Below, one piece after another: positions 959-6,579 of a stretch of 6,579 nucleotides of DNA. Made by a program: the position numbers and the translations under genes. The stretch's first letter is position 1; each line of letters begins with the position of its first letter. The stretch lies in the IMG/VR virus record IMGVR_UViG_2541047595_000016; one strand, written 5' to 3'. This stretch comes from a virus (taxonomy: Duplodnaviria > Heunggongvirae > Uroviricota > Caudoviricetes). The notes under the pieces were generated by a model, which made no database searches, had not been told where the DNA came from, and worked only from the letters and a program-made list of their open reading frames with translations.

Positions 959-3421
959 ATGACGGTCTCAACCGAAGTTGACCACAACGAATACACAGGT
1001 AACGGCGTTACGACATCATTTCCGTATACCTTCCGTATTTTCAAAAAATCCGACCTGGTTGTTCAGGTGTCTGACCTTAACGGTAACGTTACAAAACTAG
1101 TGCTGGATGCTGGTTATACGGTAACAGGGGCGGGAACTTATAGTGGCGGTGCAGTGGTTCTTCCGTCGCCGCTTGCTGCTGGCTGGCGAATCACGATAGA
1201 GCGTGTGCTTGATGTGGTGCAGGAGACTGATCTTCGCAATCAGGGAAAATTTTTCCCCGAAGTTCATGAGGATGCATTTGACTACCTGACGATGCTGATC
1301 CAGCGATGTTTTGGGTGGTTCAGACGTGCATTGATGAAACCATCTTTGCTTGCAAAATATTACGATGCAAAGCAAAACAGAATATCTAACCTTGCCGATC
1401 CATCACTTGAGCAGGACGCTGTAAATAATCGCTCAATGCGTAATTATGTCGATGCTGCAATCGCCGGAGTTATTGGTGGTTTTGGTTGGTTTATTCAGTA
1501 TGGTTCTGGAGCGGTATACAGAACGTTCCAGGATAAGATGCGTGATGGTGTCAGCATTAAGGATTTTGGAGCTCAAAATGGAATCTTAAATGATAACAAG
1601 GATGCTTTTACAAAATCATTACATTCGTTTAGCAGTGTTTTTGTTCCGGAAGGGGTATTCAATACATCTTTAGTTTCTCTTTCACGTTGTGGCTTGTACG
1701 GAACAGGTGGGGGAACGATAAAACAGTATGACAGAGATGGTAATCATCTGGTTTTTAACATGCCCGATGGTGGCATGCTTAGTACGCTAACAATTATGGG
1801 AAATAAATCAGATGATAGTGTGCAGGGACACCAGGTGTCATTTTCAGGTGGCCATGATGTATCGGTTAAAAATATCAGATTTACAAATACGCGAGGACCA
1901 GGATTTAGCTTGATCGCTTATCCGGATAATGGTATTCCGTCAGGTTACATTGTTAGAGATATAAGAGGAGAGTATTTAGGGTTCGCAAATAATAAAAAAG
2001 CAGGTTGTGTGCTTTTTGATTCATCGCAAAATACGCTAATTGATGGTGTGATAGCCAGAAATTATCCTCAGTTTGGTGCAGTGGAACTTAAAACAGCAGC
2101 AAAATATAACATTGTCAGCAATGTTATTGGTGAAGAGTGTCAGCACGTTGTTTACAATGGAACTGAGACGGAAACTGCCCCAACGAATAATATCATTAGC
2201 AGTGTAATGGCTAACAACCCAAAATACGCCGCAGTAGTTGTTGGCAAGGGGACTGGTAACCTGATTTCGGATGTGCTGGTTGATTACTCTGAATCGGACG
2301 CAAAGCAGGCGCACGGCGTCACCGTTCAGGGAAATAATAATATTGCCAGTAATATTCTAATGACTGGGTGTGATGGGAAAAATGAATCAGGAGATCTGCA
2401 GACATCTACAACCATTCGTTTCTTAGATGCTGCACGCAGTAATTATGCGTCAATATTCCCCATGTATAGTTCTTCCGGCGTGGTTACCTTCGAGGAAGGG
2501 TGTATCAGGAACTTTGTTGAAATTAAACATCCGGGTGACAGAAATAATATTCTGAGTTCTGCATCAGCGGTGACTGGTATTTCCAGTATAGACGGCACTA
2601 CAAATAGCAATGTTGTTCACGTCCCTGCGCTTGGTCAGTACGTTGGGACTATGTCAGGGCGTTTTGAATGGTGGGTTAAATATTTTAACCTTGCTAACCA
2701 GACGCTTGTTTCTGCAGATAAATTCAGAATGCTTGCTGAAGGCGATGTATCTCTGGCTGTGGGAGGCGGTATAAGTTCGCAATTGAAATTATTCAATAGT
2801 GATAATACTAAAGGCACTATGTCGCTAATAAATGGAAATATTCGAATATCTACTGGAAATTCAGAATATATACAGTTTTCTGATTCAGCCATGACACCAT
2901 CGACAACGAATACTTATTCTCTTGGGTTGGCTGGTCGTGCATGGTCGGGGGGATTTACCCAGTCAGCGTTTACGGTGCTGTCCGATGCGCGTTTCAAGAC
3001 TGCTCCAGAGGTTATTGATGAGAAAATACTGGACGCATGGGAAAGAGTGGAATGGGTTTCATACCAGTACCTTGACAGGATCGAAGTGAAAGGTAAAGAC
3101 GGAGCAAGATGGCACTTTGGTGCAGTTGCGCAGCATGTTATCAGTGTATTTCAGAATGAAGGCATAGATGTGTCACGACTGGCATTTATCTGTTATGACA
3201 AGTGGAATGAGACCCCGGCAGAATACAGGGATGTGACGGAAGAAGAGCATTCTGCAGGAGTTTACCCACTTATACAGACAAAGGTTCTGGTACGCGAAGC
3301 CGTCGAGGCTGGTGAATGTTACGGTATCCGTTATGAAGAGGCTCTGATTCTGGAATCTGCGATGATGAGACGCAGGGTTAAAAAGCTGGAAGAGCAAGTT
3401 TTGCAATTAACAGGGAATTGA
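959..3421 (+). CDS. Phage tailspike/tail-fibre receptor-binding protein (820 aa): N-terminal virion-anchor domain, central right-handed beta-helix (probable polysaccharide depolymerase), C-terminal intramolecular chaperone/peptidase S74-type self-cleaving domain
   Basis: ATG 959 with GGAGA at 948-952 and a 6-nt spacer. Residues 1-120 (YTGNGVTTSFPYTFRIF...LVLDAGYTVT...) resemble the N-terminal anchor domain of T7 gp17-like fibres. Residues about 290-640 are Asn/Gly/Ser/Thr/Val-rich with asparagine-ladder runs typical of beta-helix tailspikes (NNIISSVMANN, QGNNNIASNILMTGCDG). Residues 675-680 SDARFK fit the S-D-x-R-x-K autoproteolysis motif (Ser nucleophile, Lys at +5) of endosialidase-type C-terminal chaperone domains. 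Stop TGA 3419-3421. Confidence 0.9.
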   Translation: MTVSTEVDHNEYTGNGVTTSFPYTFRIFKKSDLVVQVSDLNGNVTKLVLDAGYTVTGAGTYSGGAVVLPSPLAAGWRITIERVLDVVQETDLRNQGKFFPEVHEDAFDYLTMLIQRCFGWFRRALMKPSLLAKYYDAKQNRISNLADPSLEQDAVNNRSMRNYVDAAIAGVIGGFGWFIQYGSGAVYRTFQDKMRDGVSIKDFGAQNGILNDNKDAFTKSLHSFSSVFVPEGVFNTSLVSLSRCGLYGTGGGTIKQYDRDGNHLVFNMPDGGMLSTLTIMGNKSDDSVQGHQVSFSGGHDVSVKNIRFTNTRGPGFSLIAYPDNGIPSGYIVRDIRGEYLGFANNKKAGCVLFDSSQNTLIDGVIARNYPQFGAVELKTAAKYNIVSNVIGEECQHVVYNGTETETAPTNNIISSVMANNPKYAAVVVGKGTGNLISDVLVDYSESDAKQAHGVTVQGNNNIASNILMTGCDGKNESGDLQTSTTIRFLDAARSNYASIFPMYSSSGVVTFEEGCIRNFVEIKHPGDRNNILSSASAVTGISSIDGTTNSNVVHVPALGQYVGTMSGRFEWWVKYFNLANQTLVSADKFRMLAEGDVSLAVGGGISSQLKLFNSDNTKGTMSLINGNIRISTGNSEYIQFSDSAMTPSTTNTYSLGLAGRAWSGGFTQSAFTVLSDARFKTAPEVIDEKILDAWERVEWVSYQYLDRIEVKGKDGARWHFGAVAQHVISVFQNEGIDVSRLAFICYDKWNETPAEYRDVTEEEHSAGVYPLIQTKVLVREAVEAGECYGIRYEEALILESAMMRRRVKKLEEQVLQLTGN

Positions 3422-3493
3422 ACCGTAAATGGTGTGTTGTTGCGCGGTATACTTTTCCTGAAGCAGGGTGTTTGCAAATAAACGGGTTTCGTT

Positions 3494-3898
3494 ATGTCAT
3501 TCCAACTAACCAATGAAACTTCAAATCAGTGGCTTAGTGTTAGTTCTCTTGCTGCGGTTATTGCAGGTGTCCCTCCGGAGGTTGCTTTGGGGGCTTTGGC
3601 TGGGGCGGTAATTTTTGTTACCTCTGCGGTAGAGTATCCTATTCGTCGTCGTGTACTCTTGTCGATGCTTAGCTTTCTCTGCGGCCTTCTTTTTTATAAA
3701 CCAGCAGCATCAATTCTTATCGGCATAGCCAGCCTGATCCCTACCATCACGCAGGACTCTTTTGAAAAAGGGATTGTTTTCTCAGCTGGCGCATTCGTGT
3801 CAGCAATTGTTGCTGTGCGTATTGGTATATGGCTCTATCACCGTTCCGATAATCCACGCGAGTTAATTCCGGGGAGAAAAGACGATGGTAACGCATGA
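3494..3898 (+). CDS. Small multi-pass membrane protein (134 aa), first gene of the lysis cassette; holin or antiholin candidate
   Basis: Three to four hydrophobic segments (about 30-46, 54-68, 70-85, 93-115) and a charged C-terminal tail ([19 protein letters not shown]). Its stop overlaps the next gene's start (ATGGTAACGCATGA). Weak Shine-Dalgarno at ATG 3494; an internal TTG at 3587 has a better GGAGG site. Function is from context only. Confidence 0.55.
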   Translation: MSFQLTNETSNQWLSVSSLAAVIAGVPPEVALGALAGAVIFVTSAVEYPIRRRVLLSMLSFLCGLLFYKPAASILIGIASLIPTITQDSFEKGIVFSAGAFVSAIVAVRIGIWLYHRSDNPRELIPGRKDDGNA

Positions 3899-4193
3899 GT
3901 TTTTTTTGCTTATCACCAATGCAGTTATTTGTACTGGCATAGCAATTCGCGTTGTCACATTCCGGCGTAACGGATCTCAACATCGAAGATTGGGAGGGTG
4001 GCTTGCTTATTTCCTTATTGTTGCTGCGGCAAGTATTCCTGTTCGTGTCGTCTATGCAATCTGGTTACGCACGCCAATGGCTGTGGATTTATCTGAGGTC
4101 ATTATCAACGCTGTCATGCTGGCTGCGGTTATTAAAACGCGCGGTAACGTCGTTCAAATTTTTAAAGTATCGAGGTCTAAACATGGAGATTAA
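3885..4193 (+). CDS. Small three-TM membrane protein (102 aa), putative holin
   Basis: ATG 3885 preceded by GGGGAGA with a 7-nt spacer. Three hydrophobic helices (about 6-24, 36-61, 67-83) and a basic C-terminus ([19 protein letters not shown]). Its 3' end overlaps the endolysin start by 11 nt, implying translational coupling. Confidence 0.6.
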
Positions 4194-4812
4194 ACAATTC
4201 CAGCGAGCTGCTGGTATCAGCGAGGCACTGGCCGCACGCTGGATCTCGCATATAACTTCTGCGATGAAAGAGTTTGGTATCAGCAAACCCGAAGATCAGG
4301 CAATGTTTATTGCTCAGGTCGGGCATGAGTCTGGTGGCTTCAACCGGTTGCAGGAAAATTTCAACTACAGCGTCACCGGACTGGCTAACTTCGTTCGGGC
4401 TGGGCGTCTCACTCAGGGGCAGGCTAATGCACTGGGGCGCCGTGCTGGTGAACCACCATTGCCACTTGAGCGCCAGCGCGCGATCGCAAATCTGGTATAC
4501 AGCAAACGCATGGGGAACAATGCCCCTGGTGATGGCTGGAATTACCGAGGGCGCGGACTTATCCAGATTACCGGTTTGAATAACTATCGTGATTGCGGAA
4601 ACGGTCTGAAGGTTGACCTGCTGGAGAGCCCTGAACTGCTGGCGCAGGACGAATATGCGGCTCGTAGCGCGGCGTGGTTCTTCGCCAGCAAAGGATGCAT
4701 GAAGTATACCGGCGATATTGCACGTGTAACTCTGATTATCAATGGTGGCCGGAACGGCATCGACGACCGGCGAGCGCGGTACATCACTGCCAGTAAGGTG
4801 CTGGCGGTATGA
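4183..4812 (+). CDS. Endolysin, glycoside hydrolase family 19 (chitinase-class-I-like lysozyme), 209 aa
   Basis: ATG 4183 with GAGG at 4172-4175. GH19 motifs VGHESGGF and [15 protein letters not shown]. The two putative catalytic Glu fall at residues 49 and 58 by my count, which matches my memory of the numbering reported for the Salmonella phage SPN1S GH19 endolysin. N-terminus is not hydrophobic, so no SAR signal. The ORF-track start at 3952 is a TTG extension through the upstream gene and is not used. Confidence 0.9.
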
Positions 4813-5291
4813 TCTGGGCATTCGTAAAAGCATACTGGAAACAGTTGCTTATCGTGGCAGTGCTTGCTGTTCTGGTCATATCAGGAGTGGTTGCCTGGAA
4901 TATACACGGCAGTCGCCAGTACGATGCCGGGTATGCGCAGGCGGAAGAAGACCGCAAAGCCGAAGAAGACAAAGTTCGTCAGTACTACGAACAGGAGAAA
5001 GTGGCCAATGAACGTGAAGCTCAGCAGAGGATCGACCAGGCGCGCAATGATGCTCTTGATGCTGCCGCTCGCGCTGGCCGGTTGCAGCAACAACTCTTTG
5101 CCATCCGTGAGCAGCTCAGGCAGTATAACGCCATTGTCGGCGCTGGGACGTCAGCCGCAGACACCGGAGTTTTGCTTGCCGACGTGCTCAGCAAATCTCT
5201 CGAGAGAAACAGACAACTGGCAGAGTATGCTGACCGGGCAGCCGAAGCCGGAAGAGTCTGCGAAAAACAGTACGACACACTGACCAGATAG
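4809..5291 (+). CDS. Rz-type i-spanin (inner-membrane spanin subunit), 160 aa
   Basis: ATG overlaps the endolysin stop (ATGA at 4809-4812). N-terminal TM helix ([18 protein letters not shown]) followed by a long charged, Ala/Gln/Glu/Arg-rich predicted coiled-coil periplasmic domain with a single C-terminal Cys. Position right after the endolysin. Confidence 0.85.
5047..5283 (+). CDS. Rz1-type o-spanin (outer-membrane lipoprotein), 78 aa, wholly embedded in the +1 frame of the i-spanin gene
   Basis: ATGATG at 5047-5052 opens [13 protein letters not shown] with lipobox LAGC and Ser at +2 (outer-membrane sorting). The mature part is Pro/Ser-rich and short with Cys residues, typical of o-spanins. 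The ORF-track ORF 4864..5283 is the same frame over-extended upstream. Confidence 0.8.
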   Translation: MMLLMLPLALAGCSNNSLPSVSSSGSITPLSALGRQPQTPEFCLPTCSANLSRETDNWQSMLTGQPKPEESAKNSTTH

Positions 5292-5372
5292 CATGGCATT
5301 TTTCATGGTACTGATTTCCGGTGACGGTATATAAAACGGTACGAGAAAAATTCATCTTTGGAAAAATGTTAT

Positions 5373-5409
5373 CACTCAATTAGTTATGGTGTCCGTAAAT
5401 AATTGAGTG
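5373..5409. repeat. Perfect 10-bp inverted repeat (CACTCAATTA ... TAATTGAGTG) with 17-bp spacer, spanning the proposed phage-host junction
   Basis: Seen in sequence: 5373-5382 cactcaatta and 5400-5409 taattgagtg are exact reverse complements. The right arm overlaps the ATTGAGTGG codons of the GuaA-like C-terminus. Confidence 0.5.
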
Positions 5410-5416
5410 GGAATGA
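5402..5416 (+). other. guaA: Orphan 3' terminus of guaA (GMP synthase) coding sequence, ...IEWE-stop; candidate attR core region
   Basis: ATT GAG TGG GAA TGA = I-E-W-E-stop. GMP synthase ends ...PPATIEWE (from memory). The frame upstream is closed by TAA at 5396-5398 and no GuaA body is present; phage lysis genes are there instead. Fits a prophage integrated at the 3' end of guaA. Confidence 0.5.
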
Positions 5417-5440
5417 TTTGACCCTGCACTATGAATGAAC

Positions 5441-5470
5441 AAAACCCTCTGTTACTACAGAGGGTTTTTT
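5441..5470. terminator. Bidirectional Rho-independent terminator between the convergent lysis operon/guaA remnant and the minus-strand host genes
   Basis: AAAA-ACCCTCTGT-tact-ACAGAGGGT-TTTTTT: stem 5443-5452 pairs with 5457-5466 (GC-rich core of 7 bp), 4-nt loop, T-tract 5465-5470 on plus strand; a weaker T-rich run follows on the minus strand. Confidence 0.75.
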
Positions 5471-5508
5471 ATCTTCAAGAATTATAGGATTGAAGTTACT
5501 AACATCGA

Positions 5509-6048
5509 TTAATTAAACCAGCTGTCCGATTTGTTCTCTTCTGCTTTGCCCACGCTTTTCATCAGATCGCGACCGCCTTCAGTCATATTTCTGTTGGCGT
5601 CAGCTTCAGATTGCACCACATCGGTTTGCGCAGCTTTGTGCTTCAGTTCCTGATCGATAAATTCGTTTTCTCGCTTAACGCGGGCTTCTTCTTTCGCCAG
5701 CGCCAGTTTTTGTTTCTGAATCTCTAAGCTGCGTAGCTCATCTTCATAACTTTGATCGCGTTTTTTGTCCGCAGAGGCTTCGGCGTCCAGTTTATCCTGA
5801 CGAGCTTTCTTATTTGCCGCTGCCGTTGCCGCTCTTTTGTTAGCGGCGGCCTGGGCATTTGCGCGACGTTGCTTCTCTTGCTGGATTTCCCTGTTGCGCT
5901 CCGCGACCCATTCGTCATGCTGCCTTTGCTCTTCATTTTTACCTTGCTGTTCCGCTTCTGCGACAGCAGAGAGTTGATCCTGCAATGATGAGGCGATAGC
6001 CGGATAGCTTAAGGAGGCTAAGATGGCGCAAAGAAAAACTTTCTTCAT
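5509..6048 (-). CDS. yfgI: Secreted (Sec signal peptide) Lys/Arg/Glu/Gln-rich coiled-coil periplasmic protein, 179 aa; host gene, tentatively YfgI
   Basis: ATG 6048-6046 with AGGAGGAG Shine-Dalgarno. Signal peptide MKKVFLCAILASLSYPAIA then an A-x-A cleavage site. The mature protein is highly charged and low-complexity (QRRANAQAAANKRAATAAANKKARQDK...). The name rests on my memory that E. coli yfgI encodes a 179-aa protein and lies beside guaA with yfgH; the sequence itself was not verified. Confidence 0.55.
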   Translation of the reverse strand: MKKVFLCAILASLSYPAIASSLQDQLSAVAEAEQQGKNEEQRQHDEWVAERNREIQQEKQRRANAQAAANKRAATAAANKKARQDKLDAEASADKKRDQSYEDELRSLEIQKQKLALAKEEARVKRENEFIDQELKHKAAQTDVVQSEADANRNMTEGGRDLMKSVGKAEENKSDSWFN

Positions 6049-6063
6049 GACTCCTCCTGATTA

Positions 6064-6579
6064 TTAGCTCTTTTCAGGACATTTGGTATTTGGCTGAATA
6101 CGCGTTTCGTTATACGTCGTGGTAATAACAACGGCTAAACCTGTCGTAAACTGGCACTCTTTACCCACCTGGGTAGAGGTATACACTTTGGTGCCTTCCT
6201 TATAGGTTAAAGAAACACCTTCCACTAAGGTTTTATCATTCACCATAGAACCCGCTGCCGCGCCTACAGCTCCGCCGCCAACTGCACCTGCCGTCGTTCC
6301 GGAATTGCTGCCAGACCCGACGTTGTGGCCGATAACACCGCCAGCGACTGCGCCAATAAGCGCGCCGAAGGCTTGTGCGTTCCGTTTATTTTGGGAGTTG
6401 TCTACGGCAACTTTTGCGGGAAGAATGGAAATAATATTAACGGTTTTAGTTTCTTGTTTGGTATTCAGTTGATCGGTTTGATAAACATCGGCAGCATGAT
6501 CGTCAGCATTTGACTGGCATCCTGCCAGAGTGAATGACGCTAACATTGCCACAGGCAGAAGACATTTTTTAAATTTCAT
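6064..6579 (-). CDS. yfgH: Glycine-zipper outer-membrane lipoprotein (SlyB/Pcp-like), 171 aa as read; host gene, tentatively YfgH
   Basis: ATG at 6579-6577, exactly at the window edge (RBS not visible; the true start could be one or more codons further upstream). Signal peptide with lipobox LAGC and Gln at +2. Gly/Ala-rich glycine-zipper segment (FGALIGAVAGGVIGHNVGSG...AGAVGGGAVGAAAGS). Lies 15 bp upstream of the 5509-6048 gene, so probably an operon. The name is from memory of the K-12 yfgH-yfgI-guaA neighbourhood; unverified. Confidence 0.5.
   Translation of the reverse strand: MKFKKCLLPVAMLASFTLAGCQSNADDHAADVYQTDQLNTKQETKTVNIISILPAKVAVDNSQNKRNAQAFGALIGAVAGGVIGHNVGSGSNSGTTAGAVGGGAVGAAAGSMVNDKTLVEGVSLTYKEGTKVYTSTQVGKECQFTTGLAVVITTTYNETRIQPNTKCPEKS

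Follow-up and report, generated by a model that had tools for sequence, protein, structure and literature searches.

The window considered here, the whole stretch of 6,579 nucleotides that was analysed, is the right arm of an integrated epsilon15-like (Uetakevirus) prophage, and its right end is E. coli chromosome carrying yfgI and yfgH. Its DNA is 80-96% identical to the lysis regions of the Uetakevirus members epsilon15, phiV10, TL-2011b, ZX5 and Tyrion. At least 80% of positions 3400-6579, which comprise the lysis genes together with the host yfgI/yfgH genes, is held by 526 of 5426 complete E. coli genomes. A tailspike gene is followed, after a spacer of 72 nt, by a lysis cassette that runs entirely on the + strand in the order gene A, gene B, GH19 endolysin, Rz/Rz1 and terminator. 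The individual features are listed below.

959-3421, + strand: tailspike gene
3494-3898, + strand: gene A, leading gene of the holin pair; ATG open reading frame whose product, 134 aa in length, is an inner-membrane protein in family PF16931 (Phage_holin_8)
3577-3589, + strand: GGAGG (3577-3581) and in-frame TTG (3587-3589, codon 32) inside gene A, judged a chance motif
3871-3876, + strand: Shine-Dalgarno sequence of gene B, GGGGAG, inside the 3' end of gene A and 8 nt before ATG 3885
3885-4193, + strand: gene B, ATG open reading frame for a 102-aa membrane protein with three predicted transmembrane domains, family PF05449 (Phage_holin_3_7, formerly DUF754)
4183-4812, + strand: soluble GH19 endolysin of the SPN1S/epsilon15 type, starting at ATG 4183
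4809-5291, + strand: Rz-like i-spanin (DUF2514)
5008-5283, + strand: Rz1-like o-spanin gene embedded in that of the i-spanin (+1 frame); lipobox LAGC
5441-5468, + strand: intrinsic-terminator-like hairpin, a 12-bp stem followed by a T run

The downstream part of the cassette is readily recognised. The endolysin matches Pfam PF00182 and PHROG 181 ‘endolysin’ (E 4.6e-91), and hydropathy analysis of its first 60 residues found no N-terminal hydrophobic segment of either the transmembrane or the SAR kind. Under the established holin-endolysin model, an endolysin of this kind would thus need a hole-forming holin and not mere depolarisation. The i-spanin matches Pfam PF10721 (E 7.6e-44) and PHROG 312 ‘Rz-like spanin’. 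The o-spanin embedded within it was recognised by translation, and the annotated Rz1-like gene of epsilon15 has the same length of 276 nt and the same position. The strong terminator-like hairpin lies at the prophage-host junction, where it appears to close the late/lysis transcription unit. Upstream, no promoter or terminator was detected between the tailspike gene and the A/B pair, and the RNA of the tailspike-to-A spacer shows no greater folding stability than shuffled controls (z +1.29).

The initial annotation had described two small membrane-protein genes before the endolysin, translationally coupled to it, the first with a weak ribosome-binding site. The two genes and the weak site are confirmed. 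Both genes are ATG open reading frames, of 134 and 102 aa, and both products are hydrophobic, with several membrane-spanning stretches by hydropathy. Gene A overlaps gene B by 14 nt (3885-3898) and gene B overlaps the endolysin gene by 11 nt (4183-4193); three genes that overlap in this way on one strand could be translationally coupled. The duplex energy of the Shine-Dalgarno (SD) sequence with the 3' end of 16S rRNA is -3.2 kcal/mol for A (ATG 3494) and -8.1 kcal/mol for B. The same asymmetry recurs in 17 of 17 phages, with mean values of -6.4 kcal/mol for A and -10.7 kcal/mol for B, and the Wilcoxon p of 0.0003 states the most that can be claimed for its significance, since the lineages are partly non-independent. 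Since the weak SD of A is family-wide, it gives no sign of a mis-called start. ATG 3494 is the first start-capable codon past an in-frame TAA at 3479, and the SD-plus-ATG element found upstream in most relatives is degenerate in the window, where a TTG stands at 3472. The SD of B is often encoded by the conserved C-terminal Gly-Gly of A. Where genes are translationally coupled, SD strength is a rough proxy for the amount of protein made.

Each member of the pair belongs to a named holin family. Gene B matches Pfam PF05449 over the full length of the model (positions 2-80 of 80; E 2.2e-26; 92.1 bits at a gathering cutoff of 25.4) as well as PHROG 217 ‘holin’, and is the ortholog of epsilon15 gp24, annotated ‘holin’. 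Gene A matches PF16931 through residues 12-120, aligned to positions 12-109 of 121 in the model (E 5.1e-12; 46.4 bits at a gathering cutoff of 26.4), and PHROG 198 ‘holin’ (E 1.8e-40). It is the ortholog of epsilon15 gp23, to which it is 90% identical. PF16931 is likewise matched by the proteins encoded just upstream of B in HK639, Pylas, RSA1, yong2 and phiCTX. In RefSeq (PGAP), the product names are ‘putative holin’ for A and ‘phage holin family protein’ for B. Other public labels of A are inconsistent and range over ‘membrane protein’, ‘hypothetical’, ‘holin’ and ‘antiholin/holin’. The two genes are, then, an ordinary, already annotated and widely distributed holin-family pair, near-identical in epsilon15-like phages.

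The distribution of basic residues is informative as to how the two proteins may sit in the membrane. Lysine and arginine are concentrated in loop 1 and the C tail of both families (3.3 and 3.5 per sequence, respectively, in PF05449; 2.0 and 3.1 in PF16931); almost none occur in the N terminus or the second loop. In both families this pattern fits three transmembrane domains (TMDs) in an N-out/C-in orientation, the layout of class I holins. Gene B is accordingly predicted to be N-out/C-in from its basic loop 1 and basic C tail. For A, three TMDs with the same orientation are most likely on the basis of charge distribution, and the topology is ambiguous in that a four-TMD arrangement is the alternative; published predictions for its relatives likewise give three or four TMDs (PMC3091744). 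An AF2 model of A is of low confidence (pLDDT 61) and is of use only for its helix boundaries, which place helices at residues 7-23, 28-44, 50-66, 68-79 and 89-118. A natural A-B fusion (P0087) results from the loss of 1 nt in an A-run at the overlap, and thus carries no topological information. A and B share no detectable homology (hhalign probability 1%), and profile searches of the PDB returned only chance transmembrane matches.

Both proteins have the general features of holins in that each is small, has at least one TMD, ends in a charged hydrophilic C-terminal tail and is encoded in a lysis cassette with an endolysin and spanins. A is additionally encoded as a distinct membrane-protein gene beside the putative holin gene in its cassette, as are separately encoded antiholins of the P2 LysA/P1 LydB type. 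In the searchable literature, no member of PF16931 or PF05449 was found to have been studied by experiment, so that for both families the name ‘holin’ is assigned from position and topology.

The cassettes of the Uetakevirus phages epsilon15 (gp23/gp24), phiV10, SPN1S, TL-2011b, ZX5 and Tyrion have the same genes, order and overlaps as the window, with the same GH19 endolysin and Rz/Rz1 downstream. The proteins are 84-97% identical for A and 79-98% identical for B, and in the Tyrion record both genes are annotated as putative holins. The differences lie between the tailspike gene and the gp23 ortholog, where epsilon15 carries the serotype-conversion genes gp21/gp22 and Tyrion an acyltransferase, in both cases on the opposite strand; the window lacks these genes.

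Inside gene A, the GGAGG at 3577-3581 is separated by 5 nt from the in-frame TTG at codon 32, from which a product of 103 aa is predicted. It had been suggested that A is translated both from this codon and from ATG 3494, so that its 134-aa and 103-aa forms would constitute a holin/antiholin pair like S107/S105 of phage lambda. The motif itself exists and is in frame, although the GGAGG ends at 3581 and not at 3580 as first given. Its spacing, the weak SD at ATG 3494 and the presence of TTG at codon 32 in 32 of 47 unique A-gene sequences (drawn from 83 related loci) all speak for a second start. In the other 15 relatives, however, codon 32 is not start-capable (TTA in 8, CTC in 5 and CTT in 2), and these include TTA loci that encode a protein identical to that of the window. 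The full GGAGG is kept in only 6 of the 47, and the GAGG core is retained because the coding of a conserved Glu-Val imposes it. Thus neither the second start nor its SD is conserved among homologs in the manner of lambda, and the weak SD of A is universal in its family.

The protein itself also argues against such a start. The N-terminal 31 residues of A are retained, aligned from Met1, in all full-length relatives down to approximately 25% identity, and a start at Leu32 would fall within a conserved helix, the one with the invariant residues Gly33 and Gly37. The short form would consequently lose about half of the N-terminal hydrophobic region kept by every family member. The lambda S107 and S105 products differ by two residues, one of which is a lysine, and starts of this type lie 1-3 codons apart with the longer form adding positive charge. 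Those of A would be 31 codons apart, and residues 1-31 contain no lysine or arginine and two glutamates (E8 and E29). Similar motifs also arise by chance in neighbouring genes: an SD-like 4-mer followed by an in-frame NTG occurs five times inside the other four + strand genes (tailspike, three; endolysin, one; Rz, one; B, none), and a GGAGG with a start codon 4-9 nt further on occurs three times on the + strand of the 6.6-kb window. The internal GGAGG/TTG is therefore judged from these comparisons to be a chance motif, and the dual-start model to be highly improbable. A holin/antiholin relationship, if there is one, most likely exists between the separate genes A and B and not within A.

The other suggestion made for this locus was that A is not a lysis protein at all, and is instead a membrane factor of lysogenic conversion or superinfection exclusion, such as an O-antigen polymerase inhibitor. 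Its position beside the tailspike gene in a serotype-converting group of phages, and the records that label it merely ‘membrane protein’, are in keeping with this idea. However, the O-antigen alpha-polymerase inhibitor of epsilon15 is a different gene, gp22, which encodes a protein of 66 aa with two TMDs on the opposite strand, between the tailspike gene and gp23, the very gene of which A is the ortholog. No gp22-like reading frame is found in the 72-nt spacer of the window, and BLASTP with gp22 gave a non-significant match to A (E 11) and no alignment to B. Additionally, members of family A are found in the N4-like Schitoviridae and in phages of the P2-like and lambdoid groups, and in each case B comes immediately after. 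The lack of any detected promoter or terminator after the late tailspike gene likewise counts against a separate function, and the defence-system models of PADLOC gave no match. In ZX5, whose cassette DNA is 96% identical, overexpression of the repressor lowers the transcripts of both holin and endolysin by more than 99.9%, and lysogeny brings no measured host phenotype (PMC9782041). A role for A in conversion or exclusion thus carries the lowest probability of all the readings weighed here and is barely tenable. What stands of the initial annotation is its general idea of holin/antiholin-type lysis proteins coupled to the endolysin, while the dual-start and O-antigen/exclusion proposals are disfavoured.

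The succession of A and then B extends well beyond the epsilon15-like phages. Homologs identified by tblastn number 232 phage records for B and 37 for A, a difference that reflects the faster divergence of A. When 22 phage GenBank records were sampled, including the six weakest B matches and podophage, siphophage and myophage backbones, a PF16931-type gene lay directly upstream of the PF05449 gene in all 22. The sampled lineages, which are only partly independent, include Uetakevirus, Hafnia phage yong2, the lambdoid phages HK639 and Stx2e phage phiP27, the Schitoviridae Pylas, FSL SP-076 and EcP1, the P2-like phages RSA1, phiCTX and Aeromonas LPM4, the Casjensviridae MA12 and N133, the P22-like Proteus phage Brookers, the Pseudomonas phages CF74b, PMG1 (D3-like) and PACT201, Citrobacter phage Chris1, and, among the weakest matches, phages of Klebsiella and Enterobacter.

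IMG/VR loci, scored with local HMMs built from the sampled A and B sequences, give the same result. Both genes are present in 238 of the 242 loci retrieved with A or B queries; three of the remaining four have no upstream flank, and in the fourth B is cut by the contig end. When two distant representatives of A served as queries, 96 further loci were retrieved, of which 95 have both genes. The pair is therefore found in all but one of approximately 340 IMG/VR loci with enough flanking DNA, and no case of B without A was seen among approximately 440 loci. The A-then-B order is seen again in two Pseudomonas prophage contexts that carry precomputed Pfam labels. A scan of viral contigs with P0172 as the query gave no matches. 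The single exception, locus L286, lacks exactly B: A and the endolysin are kept, the stop codon of A abuts the endolysin start, and the 22 sister loci retain B. This locus is a single 10-kb fragment of a prophage, possibly a non-viable one.

The endolysin that adjoins the pair is, by comparison, variable, and may be a GH19 or GH24 enzyme, a PF11860 muramidase with or without PG_binding_1, or an M15_4 peptidase. In EcP1, CF74b, N133 and PMG1, the pair is present with no adjacent endolysin at all. Because the endolysin varies or is absent while the pair stays, the invariant unit is A followed by B and not a holin followed by its endolysin. A-then-B is thus a fixed two-gene module across phage types.

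Several known systems resemble this module to differing degrees. The closest outside the Uetakevirus group are the pairs of P2-like phages, namely Burkholderia KS5, KS14 and KL3, Ralstonia RSA1 and Pseudomonas phiCTX (orf9/orf10), which represent the same two Pfam families, arranged in identical order. As in the window, they lie immediately before the endolysin, have overlapping stop and start codons, and are both predicted to span the membrane several times. They differ in their identity to the window proteins, which is 25-40%, in an endolysin composed of PG_binding_1 and a PF11860 muramidase, and in their myophage backbone, and their labels, too, are predictions. For the Burkholderia phages, Lynch et al. 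2010 (PMC3091744) relied solely on gene order and predicted TMDs in naming the DUF754 protein the holin and the TM protein of 113-124 aa upstream of it the putative antiholin. The GenBank records of Pylas and MA12 carry the comparable labels ‘antiholin/holin’ and ‘holin’.

One candidate link to a holin outside these families was rejected. A search with phiCTX orf9, a member of family A, did not recover the tested pyocin holin Hol/PA0614 as a relative, and the pyocin holins (TC 1.E.20) have been described as ‘not related’ to the phiCTX type (TC 1.E.56; Ghequire et al. 2015). With this link rejected, PA0614 offers no experimental anchor for family A. The holins of UE-M6 and JC1 belong to other families.

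Lambda S105/S107 has the class I layout in common with B, and probably with A, consisting of three TMDs, an N-out/C-in orientation, a basic cytoplasmic C tail and a gene placed before the endolysin. There is no sequence relationship between the two systems, however, and A and B have no conserved closely spaced starts; any regulation within the pair would come from a second gene and not, as in lambda, from a second start. Cassettes with two small membrane proteins are also known from P2 (Y/LysA), P1 (LydA/LydB), N4 (gp63/gp62) and SPP1 (gp24.1/gp26). The proteins of these four systems are of unrelated families with other numbers of TMDs (two in N4 gp62), and they have been studied genetically, whereas A and B are known from sequence. 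In N4, which offers a functional analogue, the two proteins are a pinholin and a regulator; gp62 behaves both as an antiholin and like a holin, and the gp62/gp63 pair is encoded by most relatives (PMC12642591).

Together, the family assignments, the position in the cassette and the conservation of the module suggest that A and B are probably the holin module of the late lysis cassette, with B as the hole-former, A as its partner, and each gene yielding one full-length product with no lambda-style dual start. A single late mRNA would serve for both proteins and for the endolysin and spanins. B most probably forms the lethal membrane holes through which the soluble GH19 endolysin would reach the cell wall. 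A, which its weak SD suggests is made in smaller amounts, would act as a dedicated membrane partner of B that sets or restrains the time of triggering, as either a separately encoded antiholin or a co-holin. As with the topology and the division of labour, we infer a physical interaction between the two proteins.

The more specific assignment of B as the holin and A as its regulator is put forward tentatively. Locus L286, which has A and an endolysin without B, suggests that A can do without B and might itself be the true holin. Additionally, an obligate two-subunit holin would account for the near-absolute co-conservation of the two genes no less well than a holin and regulator would. Separately encoded antiholins such as P2 LysA, P1 LydB and T4 RI are accessory and lineage-specific.

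A possible though rather unlikely alternative is accordingly that A and B are subunits of a single hole-forming complex, neither of which works alone. The A-then-B order persists across lineages of 25-40% identity while the endolysin is swapped among four enzyme families, and the pair stays together even in the four phages in which no endolysin adjoins it. The two families are moreover unrelated, so the pair is not a duplicated holin. L286 again provides the counter-example, in this case because B is dispensed with, and the consistent SD asymmetry suggests that the two proteins are made in unequal amounts. If this doubtful reading were nevertheless true, PF16931 and PF05449 would together constitute a widespread class of obligate heteromeric holin in phages of Gram-negative bacteria, in which gene order and SD asymmetry, with the SD of B lying in the Gly-Gly codons of A, would set the stoichiometry of the subunits and hence the timing of lysis.

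The roles may also be the reverse of those in the public annotation, with A as the hole-forming holin and B as an accessory regulator. It is precisely B that is missing from L286, the sole one-gene case, with no B-without-A counterpart among the loci surveyed, and of the two proteins it is A whose C-terminal tail is longer and highly charged, as is typical of holins. L286 is nonetheless only one prophage fragment of 10 kb, and it is B that immediately precedes the endolysin, carries the stronger SD in all 17 phages and has the canonical size and three-TMD layout of class I holins, all of which makes the reversal improbable. The likeliest assignment is still B as the probable hole-former and A as its partner. 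To learn which of the two makes the hole and which controls the timing would aid the engineering of lysis timing in phages that are employed in detection and therapy, derivatives of phiV10 and SPN1S among them. Besides phages of the epsilon15/phiV10/SPN1S type, the module is carried by the Stx2e phage phiP27, phiCTX, and the P2-like phages of Ralstonia and Burkholderia.

The A/B junctions of 17 phages (L001-L003, L084-L088, L252-L258, L264 and L285) were compared, together with window 3871-3887, and in all 17 the Shine-Dalgarno (SD) energy of gene A, calculated for the duplex with the 16S rRNA 3' end, is weaker than that of gene B, with means of -6.4 and -10.7 kcal/mol, respectively. At these junctions, the conserved Gly-Gly near the C terminus of gene A often encodes the SD of gene B, and thus the C-terminal conservation of gene A may partly reflect a constraint at the nucleotide level.

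The leader of gene A was examined at window 3455-3516 and, in its close relatives (L001-L083), about 45 nt upstream of the gene. A strong SD and an out-of-frame ATG are found 22-23 nt 5' of the gene A ATG in 64 of these 83 loci. In most relatives, the upstream open reading frame (uORF) beginning at this ATG spans 11-14 codons and stops just within gene A, whereas in the window a TTG at 3472 replaces the uORF ATG. The nucleotides ATGCAYAKTAAAYGGTGG are kept, but the reading frame and the peptide of the uORF vary. The epsilon15 record carries an annotated RNase III site at the uORF region upstream of its gene A ortholog.

Genes A and B also occur as a natural fusion, P0087 (232 aa; 21 member sequences in public assemblies), which originates from the loss of 1 nt from the run of adenines in the A/B overlap; either a mutational frameshift or a misassembly is the probable source. 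At a single locus among approximately 440 (L286:1938-2903), a muramidase gene lies directly 3' of the family A gene, and comparison with L285:1971-3216 reveals the exact absence of gene B; the A-B-endolysin order is retained in 22 sister loci of L286. Gene B without gene A was not seen among the approximately 440 loci.

Upstream lies the tailspike gene:
959-3421, + strand, tailspike (820 aa) with a C-terminal Peptidase_S74 intramolecular-chaperone domain

This protein is unlike the epsilon15 tail fiber (1070 aa). Serotype-conversion genes follow the tailspike in epsilon15 (gp21/gp22) and Tyrion (an acyltransferase), but none follows that of the window.

Downstream, the Rz-like gene contains an embedded gene, followed by host sequence:
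5008-5283, + strand, Rz1-like o-spanin gene (lipobox LAGC, SD AGGAGA), embedded in the Rz-like gene in the +1 frame
5441-5468, terminator-like hairpin with a 12-bp stem, between Rz and yfgI
5509-6048, - strand, host gene yfgI
6064-6579, - strand, host gene yfgH

In the mechanical ORF list, the Rz1-like gene appears only inside a longer TTG-started ORF (4864-5283). The attR site is situated between the end of Rz (5291) and the host genes yfgI/yfgH (window 5292-6579), and 526 of the 5426 complete genomes of E. coli contain at least 80% of window 3400-6579.
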